This document shows, one piece after another, positions 3,147 through 4,706 of a DNA stretch of 9,481 nucleotides; position 1 is the stretch's first letter; each line of letters starts with the position of its first letter. The stretch is from IMG/VR virus record IMGVR_UViG_2671180349_000010. The stretch is one strand, 5' to 3'. Made by a program: the position numbers and the translations under genes. Under the pieces are notes generated by a model. That model was not told where the DNA came from and did no database searches. It saw nothing but the letters and a program-made list of their open reading frames with translations. The stretch is from a virus (taxonomy: Duplodnaviria; Heunggongvirae; Uroviricota; Caudoviricetes).

Positions 3147-3535
3147 AGGAGCCCCCAGCGACAGCGAAGGAGTTCTGATATATAAGACTCAGACATCATT
3201 CATTCCCCGGTTCTCCAATATCTGTTTCACTCATCATCCATAACTACCTGTAATTGCCCCCCTTTTTTTGTAACAGTTCTTATATTGCTATATAGAATAG
3301 CCATTACTAATGCATTTAAATTTAATAAAATAAAAATCATAAAAAACATAAAACACCACGCAAACACACTTAATAAAAACACCGTTACATTAAAAGATAA
3401 TAAAAACCGCAATAAAAACGAATAAATCAATTGTCTCACGCAATTATAAAACATCATATTGATTACGCACCTTGTATTACAAACTCATGTATGTAAAATA
3501 CGCGCACCATTCAAAAAAAAGGAAGACAATAACAT

Positions 3536-4495
3536 ATGAAAAAAAGTGTCATCGCTGGCGTCTTTATTGCTCTGTCATTTACCACGTGTTCAGCTATCGC
3601 GAACAGCCTTGCATTATCATTAGCAAATGATGATGCAGGGAAGTTTCAACCAATACTTAATGATATTTATGGCAATAAACATGAAAACAGAGATGATTAC
3701 TCACAAGGCTTATTTCTGGGATATAGCCACGATATCTCAGACTCGAGCCAATTATCTCTCCATATTGCGCAAGATATTTACTCTCCATCAGGCAGTAATA
3801 AAAGACACAACACAGCTGTAACTGGAGACAGAGCTTTTAGTGCATACACTCACACTGGTATTGAATGGAACTCCCTTGCGAATGACTGGATTCGCTATCG
3901 ATTAGGTACTGACATAGGTGTTGTTGGCCCCGACGCAGGCGGTCAGAAAGTACAAAATAAAGCTCATGAGATTATTGGGGCAGAAAAATATCATGCATGG
4001 GATGATCAAATAGAGAATCGCTACGGTTATACTGTAAAAGGGATGCTATCCATGACACCAAGTATGGATATTTTAGGTGCTAATGTTGGATTATACCCTG
4101 AAGTTTCTGCTGTTACTGGAAACTTATTTCAATATGTAGCATATGGCGCAACCATTGCCATTGGTAATGATAAAACCTTCAATTCGGATAATGGCTTTGG
4201 TCTGCTGGCTCCCCGTGGTTTAATGCATATGTCCGATACAAGCGGATTCAAATACAAGATTTTTGCAGGTATGGAAAGACGAGATGTCAATCGCAACTAT
4301 ACTCTCGAAGGAAAAACAATACAGACGAAACAAACAACAGTATCGCTAAACAAAACTGTTGATGAATATCAAGTTGGCGCAACAATTGGGTATGCACCTG
4401 TAGCCTTCACACTAGCATTTAATAAAGTAACATCAGAATTCAAGACAGGGGATGACTATTCATTTATAAATGGAGCAATCACCTTCTTTTTTTAA
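3536..4495 (+). CDS. lpxR: LpxR-family outer-membrane lipid A 3'-O-deacylase (beta-barrel, 319-aa precursor)
   Basis: N-terminal signal peptide MKKSVIAGVFIALSFTTCSAIA, then the mature protein. With cleavage after AIA, mature residues N9, D10, S34, H122 and E128 fall at the positions I recall as the LpxR active site. The protein ends in Phe, as outer-membrane barrels typically do, and the 319-aa length matches the LpxR precursor as recalled. AAGGAAG lies upstream of the ATG. The gene and its upstream region are strongly AT-rich. Confidence 0.8.
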   Translation: MKKSVIAGVFIALSFTTCSAIANSLALSLANDDAGKFQPILNDIYGNKHENRDDYSQGLFLGYSHDISDSSQLSLHIAQDIYSPSGSNKRHNTAVTGDRAFSAYTHTGIEWNSLANDWIRYRLGTDIGVVGPDAGGQKVQNKAHEIIGAEKYHAWDDQIENRYGYTVKGMLSMTPSMDILGANVGLYPEVSAVTGNLFQYVAYGATIAIGNDKTFNSDNGFGLLAPRGLMHMSDTSGFKYKIFAGMERRDVNRNYTLEGKTIQTKQTTVSLNKTVDEYQVGATIGYAPVAFTLAFNKVTSEFKTGDDYSFINGAITFFF

Positions 4496-4541
4496 CTGAA
4501 TTGAATTCAATCAAAATAACATAAGTCCAACAAAAACATAA

Positions 4542-4578
4542 AGTGCGAAATGAATGCCAGCTCCATTTATTTCGCACT
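4542..4578. terminator. Hairpin between convergent genes (lpxR-like on plus, ninI on minus); possible bidirectional terminator
   Basis: Inverted repeat AGTGCGAAAT (4542..4551) / ATTTCGCACT (4569..4578) with a long loop. On the minus strand it is followed by a T-rich tract (ttatgtttttgtt). No clean U-run on plus. Confidence 0.3.
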
Positions 4579-4706
4579 ATAAAAGATTAAAAGTTGCAAT
4601 AAAATAATAAAATGACTCAGTTACGAAAACCAATAAACTATGGCCAGTAGTGAGTCGCTCATCATCGGGCTTTTTGGCGAATGAAATTTAGCTACGCTTT
4701 CGAGTC

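Follow-up and report, generated by a model that had tools for sequence, protein, structure and literature searches.

Does the early region of a lambdoid prophage carry a working lipid A deacylase gene, and does that gene form a unit of its own that the phage would bring to its host? We addressed this question with a 9,481-nucleotide stretch of the Caudoviricetes virus record IMGVR_UViG_2671180349_000010 (the whole stretch is referred to as the window), in which a single long plus-strand gene, lpxR (3536..4495), lies between the nin genes and the late antiterminator gene Q. The answer that we favor, with a probability of about 0.93, is that the window contains a self-contained lysogenic-conversion cassette (moron) encoding LpxR in a phage 434-like lambdoid prophage; we infer that the cassette has its own promoter, that it is bound by H-NS, and that a hairpin behind the gene plays a part in it. 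The finding is already known: the same gene in the same lambdoid-prophage slot is annotated in phage 434 (GenBank) and in RefSeq, and its function has been reported for enterohemorrhagic Escherichia coli (EHEC). Because an identical protein at the same prophage position has been published, the window adds only another copy.

Identification of lpxR

The open reading frame (ORF) at 3536..4495 on the plus strand encodes 319 amino acids and is the sole long plus-strand frame in the ORF list, amid minus-strand phage genes. Its translation matched the Pfam family PF09982 (LpxR) with an E value of 6.8e-40 and 137.4 bits, where the gathering score is 26, and the match was nearly complete (protein residues 10-318 on profile positions 2-320 of 323). 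None of the NCBIfam models matched the protein. The crystallized LpxR of Salmonella Typhimurium (3FID_A) was matched with an E value of 3.6e-153, and 220 of 296 residues (74%) were identical over the mature chain. This alignment paired residues 24-319 of the query with residues 2-296 of the chain, contained a single one-residue gap, and spanned the 12-stranded β-barrel. Moreover, the protein was 100% identical to WP_000750155.1 (Z0955) of E. coli EDL933 and to UMO75329.1 (gp65) of phage 434. The original prediction had named the gene lpxR-like, and the Pfam match, the alignment with 3FID, and the identity to Z0955 bear this out. Judged by its sequence, the gene is an intact, full-length member of the LpxR family and is predicted to encode an outer-membrane lipid A 3′-O-deacylase. 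The fold was taken from homology because of the 74% identity to a solved structure; the protein would accordingly be a Ca2+-dependent hydrolase of the outer membrane built as a 12-stranded β-barrel.

The first 22 residues (MKKSVIAGVFIALSFTTCSAIA, 3536..3601, plus strand) read as a signal peptide with a predicted cleavage site before N23. A mature start at residue 23 fits the 3FID alignment, in which chain residue 2 pairs with precursor residue 24, and it agrees with the published numbering offset of 22 (9/31 and 122/144; PMC6863877). Inspection by eye located export signals at both termini, MKKSVIAGVFIALSFTTCSAIA|NS... at the N-terminus and the aromatic end ...ITFFF at the C-terminus. LpxR protein from a published construct with the native signal peptide was recovered in outer-membrane vesicles.

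Active-site residues

The mature protein holds N9, D10, D11, S34, K67, R68, Q118, H122, E128, and K129. The original prediction had named N9, D10, S34, H122, and E128 as the catalytic positions of LpxR. In the alignment with the Salmonella enzyme, which has the same length of 319 residues, N9, D10, S34, Q118, H122, and E128 paired one-to-one with N9, D10, T34, Q118, H122, and E128 of 3FID, and K67 and R68 were also shared. All five predicted positions therefore align, but the Salmonella reference has Thr at position 34, in place of the Ser found here. The change is conservative, and Ser is the published EHEC state at this position (PMC6863877). The residue map of EHEC LpxR has itself been published, as 9/31, 10/32, Thr/Ser 34/56, 118/140, 122/144, and 128/150 (PMC6863877). 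In LpxR, the Ca2+ site consists of N9, D10, and T34, H122 activates the hydrolytic water, E128 has been proposed to orient H122, and K67 and R68 bind the 3-deoxy-d-manno-oct-2-ulosonic acid (Kdo) sugars (PMC6260217).

These residues also bear on the question of whether the protein is mainly something other than a lipid A deacylase, with a non-enzymatic, porin-like role. Phage-borne outer-membrane β-barrels, of which this protein is one, often have other roles. Older annotations of Z0955/ECs0814 called the product SfpA-like, after a Yersinia “porin” (PMC3891560, PMC2323221); the 2007 list that used this label placed the gene on prophage Sp3 and found it conserved in all tested O157 and non-O157 EHEC (PMC2323221). 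However, the SfpA label was coined before the LpxR family was recognized, every catalytic and Ca2+-binding residue is kept at 74% identity to an enzyme of established structure and mechanism, and papers report deacylase activity for EHEC lpxR. We therefore regard a porin-like protein as very improbable. The intact residues, together with the reports on EHEC lpxR, whose product Z0955 is identical to the protein encoded here, support the earlier claim that the enzyme is probably active and would confer a lysogenic-conversion trait.

Extent of the cassette and its place in the prophage

The window spans the part of a lambdoid prophage that runs from the early-right region to late control and is shown on the strand opposing phage transcription. 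On the minus strand, the genes run in the phage 434 order O (8342..9241), P (7644..8345), ren, ninB, dam, ninE, ninF, ninG (5369..5983), and ninI, whereas the EDL933 prophage is rearranged beyond ninE. Past ninI, the same strand carries ylcG, a Q82-type antiterminator gene, two ORFs for membrane proteins, and the beginning of a gene for a SASA-family carbohydrate esterase. lpxR is the only sizeable plus-strand gene among these phage genes, which agrees with the original view that it is antisense to the early-right (PR) transcript.

The boundaries of the cassette were determined from homology breakpoints. On the left, phage 82 and PhiR47_2, with the arrangement rusA-ylcG-Q, are homologous to the window up to positions 3207-3208. 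On the right, homology to lambda-type ninI-Q phages (HK446, mEp213, Sf101, and others) has its edge at 4641-4643; more than 700 E. coli genomes without lpxR match from 4641 rightwards only, and in many such genomes the match is limited to 4641..4706. Because of these breakpoints, we place the moron at approximately 3209..4640 on the plus strand. It is about 1.43 kb long and has a GC content of 35.9%, compared with 47.8% in the rest of the window. With presence defined as at least 80% coverage of 3200..4706, 618 of the 5,426 complete E. coli genomes searched carried the cassette. The ORF map, the breakpoints, and the base composition thus uphold the proposal of a reverse-oriented, AT-rich moron between the nin genes and Q.

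The left flank of the moron is a small ylcG-like gene (3077..3199, minus strand; 40 amino acids, 43% GC), recognized from its ORF and from YlcG in phage 434, O145:H28, and EDL933. It is followed by the Q82-type late antiterminator gene (2373..3062, or to 3146, minus strand; Pfam Phage_antiter_Q, E value 1.3e-91), which starts at MNT... in the phage 434 annotation. In regards to the right flank, ninI (4707..5372, minus strand) encodes a serine/threonine phosphatase, is the last intact nin gene, and is convergent with lpxR. Its product matched Metallophos with an E value of 3.4e-16 and the NCBIfam protein-serine/threonine phosphatase models with 274 and 232 bits, both under the curated equivalog cut-offs. 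The remnant of a lambda-type Q gene lies at 4621..4710 on the minus strand; its translation gives 30 codons, of which approximately 20 are Q codons, followed by nine novel codons and a stop. In phage 434, this stub is annotated as the N-terminal fragment of an antiterminator-like protein, and RefSeq lists it as a pseudogene for a partial antitermination protein; it marks the right-hand recombination scar of the moron. Taken on sequence comparison, the cassette lies where two modules of a mosaic meet: a lambda-type nin region that ends in the Q-lambda stub, and a ylcG-Q module of the phage-82 type.

Comparison with related prophages and homologues

Over 9,380 bases, the window and phage 434 (OL657226; Feiss et al. 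2022, PMC9119081) shared 99.76% identity. In that phage, CPT_434_65 encodes the identical protein and is annotated as “outer membrane beta-barrel lipid A deacylase LpxR”, and the genome announcement discusses virulence-factor morons in general terms and leaves LpxR unnamed (PMC9119081). Relative to phage 434, the window has an extra 8 bp inserted at approximately 4598..4605, its SASA esterase gene is cut short by a premature stop, and its gene for a 247-amino-acid membrane protein is frameshifted. The insertion is a AATAAAAT repeat unit that is found in the window and in EDL933 and is absent from phage 434, and base 4640 is A in the window and G in both phage 434 and EDL933. Because of the AATAAAAT unit and base 4640, the window is not phage 434 itself. 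Prophages in O84:H7, O103:H2, O145:H28, and other E. coli were 99.8% identical to the window.

In EDL933, Z0955 (ECs0814 in Sakai; CP-933K/OI#36, which is Sp3) combines the identical protein with a nearly identical promoter region. It is likewise flanked by ylcG-Q82 on one side and by the Q-lambda stub and ninI on the other. The differences are a few substitutions and homopolymer indels (insertions or deletions) that are confined to non-coding DNA.

Like the classical lambdoid morons (lambda bor and lom, and the Shiga toxin (Stx) genes downstream of Q), the cassette would be an accessory gene with its own signals and an atypical composition between conserved modules. Classical morons are expressed from the repressed prophage. 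Unlike them, lpxR lies upstream of Q and antisense to PR. Salmonella lpxR is a chromosomal gene and is not known to lie in a lambdoid prophage.

A single-protein search of genome contigs returned one locus, in Citrobacter, at 73% identity. This chromosomal LpxR homologue of Citrobacter sp. ANG330 (L004, 3995..4960) has no evident phage genes around it. It lies in an AT-rich island of about 3 kb, with 30-41% GC against approximately 55% in the flanks, and is not followed by a 3′ hairpin of the E. coli type.

A second E. coli allele was observed on the 103-kb plasmid p16F5M1D101 (NZ_AP019857.1; L005, 4046..5005). The encoded protein is 80% identical to LpxR of the window and has Thr34, as in Salmonella; remnants of ISNCY and IS3 elements and a gene for an M91 family zinc metallopeptidase are close by.

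The hairpin downstream of lpxR

A stem-loop with a 15-bp stem and a 7-nt loop was detected at 4542..4578, 47 nt past the lpxR stop codon, by folding and comparison with shuffled sequences. Its folding energy with flanks was −19.1 kcal/mol, the z scores were −7.75 on the plus strand and −3.91 on the minus strand, and none of 200 shuffles was as stable. The hairpin is identical in phage 434 and EDL933. A U-run (UUUAUGUUUUUGU) follows it on the minus strand only, and none follows it on the lpxR strand. The original prediction had described the hairpin as shared with the convergent ninI gene. The hairpin is real, but 128 nt, including the lambda-type Q stub, separate it from the ninI stop codon, and, as described below, its arms travel with lpxR.

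The position and the U-run raise the question of whether the hairpin is instead a phage-side, tR-like intrinsic terminator of the PR transcript past ninI, which shares the end of lpxR by chance. The strand that carries UUUAUGUUUUUGU is the phage sense strand, and the site of the hairpin, between ninI and Q, is one at which lambdoid phages have N-sensitive terminators. Against such a terminator, the same arms follow the 80%-identical lpxR allele on p16F5M1D101, which has no phage genes nearby. There, the arms are kept, the loop and flanks have changed, and the U-run again occurs only on the strand opposing lpxR. Furthermore, the phage 434 annotators marked many terminators and none at this site. 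A consensus terminator scan of 2300..5400 likewise returned three sites, against 2.3 expected, without calling the lpxR hairpin. A phage-side terminator is consequently possible but, in our judgment, unlikely. We assign the hairpin to the lpxR unit rather than to ninI or the phage, because its arms follow lpxR on the phage-free plasmid. In the lpxR unit, it could end or stabilize the lpxR mRNA, or it could shield lpxR from convergent transcription; a hairpin that travels with lpxR even on a plasmid could represent a cassette-borne “anti-convergent” terminator.

Since lpxR lies upstream of Q and is antisense to PR, early-right transcription can arrive at Q only by traversing the gene backwards. 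The gene order suggests that, during lytic growth, N-modified polymerase would have to cover the 1.4 kb of the cassette in the antisense direction, and pass the conserved hairpin, before it arrived at Q82. By this antisense crossing and by the U-run of the hairpin on the phage-sense strand, the cassette may even act as a transcriptional roadblock in the phage circuit, although we consider this improbable. If it were true, transcription of lpxR driven by Ler/Pch and late-gene activation of the prophage would antagonize each other by transcriptional interference, and the virulence regulon would be coupled to the timing of prophage induction.

The upstream region

The GC content of 3147..3535 was 32.1%, compared with 46% for the window, and that of the intergenic part, 3200..3535, was 29.5%. 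The lowest-GC stretches of the whole window, 3280..3379 (20%) and 3263..3462 (23%), lie upstream of lpxR. The low GC content of the upstream region, for which the original prediction had given the limits 3147..3535, was thus confirmed, but 3147..3199 belongs to ylcG, whose coding sequence begins there on the opposite strand. Compared with phage 434 and EDL933 together, 3200..3535 is nearly identical, save for three homopolymer indels and three substitutions; EDL933 differs at five positions only.

A candidate σ70 core promoter, TTGTAT, 16 nt, and TAAAAT, was located at 3472..3499 on the plus strand on the basis of sequence conservation; its −10 element would be 3494..3499, and transcription would begin near 3506. 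In the 80%-identical plasmid allele, the promoter-like block (TTG, 16 nt, and TAAAAT) is kept inside TATGTAAAATAC, and the DNA further upstream does not align. A ribosome-binding site, AGGAAG, is present at 3520..3525 (plus strand), 10 nt before the ATG, and the equivalent site is annotated in phage 434.

A minus-strand ORF of 76 codons at 3227..3457 was considered as a gene and rejected. The three homopolymer indels that distinguish the copies in the window, phage 434, and EDL933 break its frame, and it is nowhere annotated. An interaction of the small RNA MicF with lpxR is reported for Salmonella. Here, a manually entered MicF sequence gave a best duplex of −14.6 kcal/mol with the lpxR 5′ region, which was not significant, as 70 of 300 shuffles were equal or better. 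An Rfam search of the whole window at E ≤ 1 gave no match inside 3147..4706.

Expression and function

In a lysogen, PR is repressed, and lpxR would therefore be transcribed from its own promoter, presumably the one in the AT-rich upstream region. A target of H-NS and Ler is likely within 3200..3535, and binding of H-NS to this region is plausible: the idea fits the 29.5% GC content of the promoter region and the activation of Z0955 by Ler, which is an H-NS antagonist. The region would probably be silenced by H-NS and de-silenced by Ler and Pch in hosts that carry the LEE (locus of enterocyte effacement). A search for H-NS chromatin immunoprecipitation (ChIP) data on the lpxR locus found none, and the locus is named neither in the Pch/H-NS ChIP study PMC4764244 nor in its supplements.

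In published work on EHEC, Z0955 is assigned to the Ler/LEE regulon by microarrays and RNA-seq. Z0955, located on prophage island OI#36, was activated 5-fold by Ler (PMC3891560), and Z0955/ECs0814 falls together with LEE genes in yhaO/yhaJ mutants (PMC4699771). lpxR has been placed in the LEE modulon (PMC9263587), and it was present in 218 of 224 EHEC genomes (97%) in a study that also tried the protein as a vaccine antigen (PMC6863877). According to the passages in which later papers, including PMC6863877, cite Ogawa et al. 2018 (Cell Microbiol 20:e12806), EHEC lpxR has 3′-O-deacylase activity. In passages that cite the same work, a Sakai mutant is described as linking lpxR to innate-immune attenuation, with less phagocytosis and less TLR4-dependent signaling, and expression of the gene is said to need both Pch and Ler.

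Several points weigh against a cassette that is expressed and active. The reported enzymatic activity, the immune attenuation, and the control of lpxR by Pch and Ler come from the literature through secondary citations. A consensus promoter scan of 2300..5400 returned seven sites, against 8.6 expected, and did not list the candidate lpxR promoter. The high-affinity H-NS 10-mer TCGATAAATT, with two mismatches or fewer, matched seven times in the window and not once in 3200..3535. The presence of lpxR is no guarantee of deacylated lipid A, as the case of Typhimurium illustrates (PMC6260217). Furthermore, in a host without Ler and Pch, such as K-12 with phage 434, lpxR may be silent.

These points lead to the alternative that lpxR is carried as silent cargo, permanently silenced by H-NS or enzymatically latent, so that lipid A is unchanged and no conversion phenotype arises. 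The very AT-rich promoter region is consistent with this alternative, as is the need of EHEC for the horizontally acquired Pch and Ler, since nothing in the window shows that the host has either. Typhimurium offers a precedent for latency (PMC6260217). In addition, the late-region accessory genes with a premature stop and a frameshift suggest a decaying prophage. The same damage can be read in the other direction. LpxR is 100% conserved among the phage 434, O157, O145, and O84 copies while the flanking non-coding DNA and the neighbor genes vary, and because the protein is perfectly conserved while neighboring accessory genes carry the stop and the frameshift, we argue for selection on lpxR function. 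MC001, the EHEC LpxR homologue, also showed a higher level of RNA expression under two growth conditions (PMC6863877). On balance, silent cargo is a minor possibility, and we prefer a lysogenic-conversion cassette whose expression would depend on the regulators of the host.

Other features of the window

Two lesions distinguish the late-control side of the window from phage 434. At base 354 (codon 352..354, minus strand), the window has A and phage 434 has C, which creates a TAG stop. The SASA-family esterase ORF has 183 amino acids here, compared with 616 in phage 434 and in the nearest E. coli prophages. This stop may be a genuine nonsense mutation, or it may reflect an error in sequencing. 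At 1703/1704, a T-run is one base shorter than in phage 434, and the gene for the 247-amino-acid membrane protein (WP_001302581.1) is thereby divided into ORFs 1685..2203 and 1446..1688; the gene is intact in phage 434, EDL933, O145:H28, and O84:H7.

Directly downstream of Q82, the minus strand of 2297..2366 contains a strong intrinsic terminator (2327..2306), in which a 9-bp stem is followed by TTTTTT, and a terminator is annotated in phage 434. A promoter-like site (2389..2361) and a weak STnc240-like Rfam match are located near this terminator. The region looks like a late promoter with a short terminated transcript on which Q acts.

A small RNA resembling STnc100 was detected at 987..1191 on the minus strand, just upstream of the esterase gene (Rfam RF02076; 41.4 bits, below the gathering score of 47; E value 2e-6). 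It is probably the PasD small RNA. In a 2026 preprint, PasD is described as related to STnc100 and as lying within 10 kb of lpxR and Q in more than 98% of cases. No tRNA genes were found in the window.

Biological significance

The 3′-O-deacylation of lipid A by LpxR lowers the stimulation of Toll-like receptor 4 (TLR4) by lipopolysaccharide and belongs to the virulence program of EHEC and enteropathogenic E. coli (EPEC). Phage 434 carries the same intact lpxR, which, if expressed, might therefore alter the lipid A of K-12 lysogens of phage 434.

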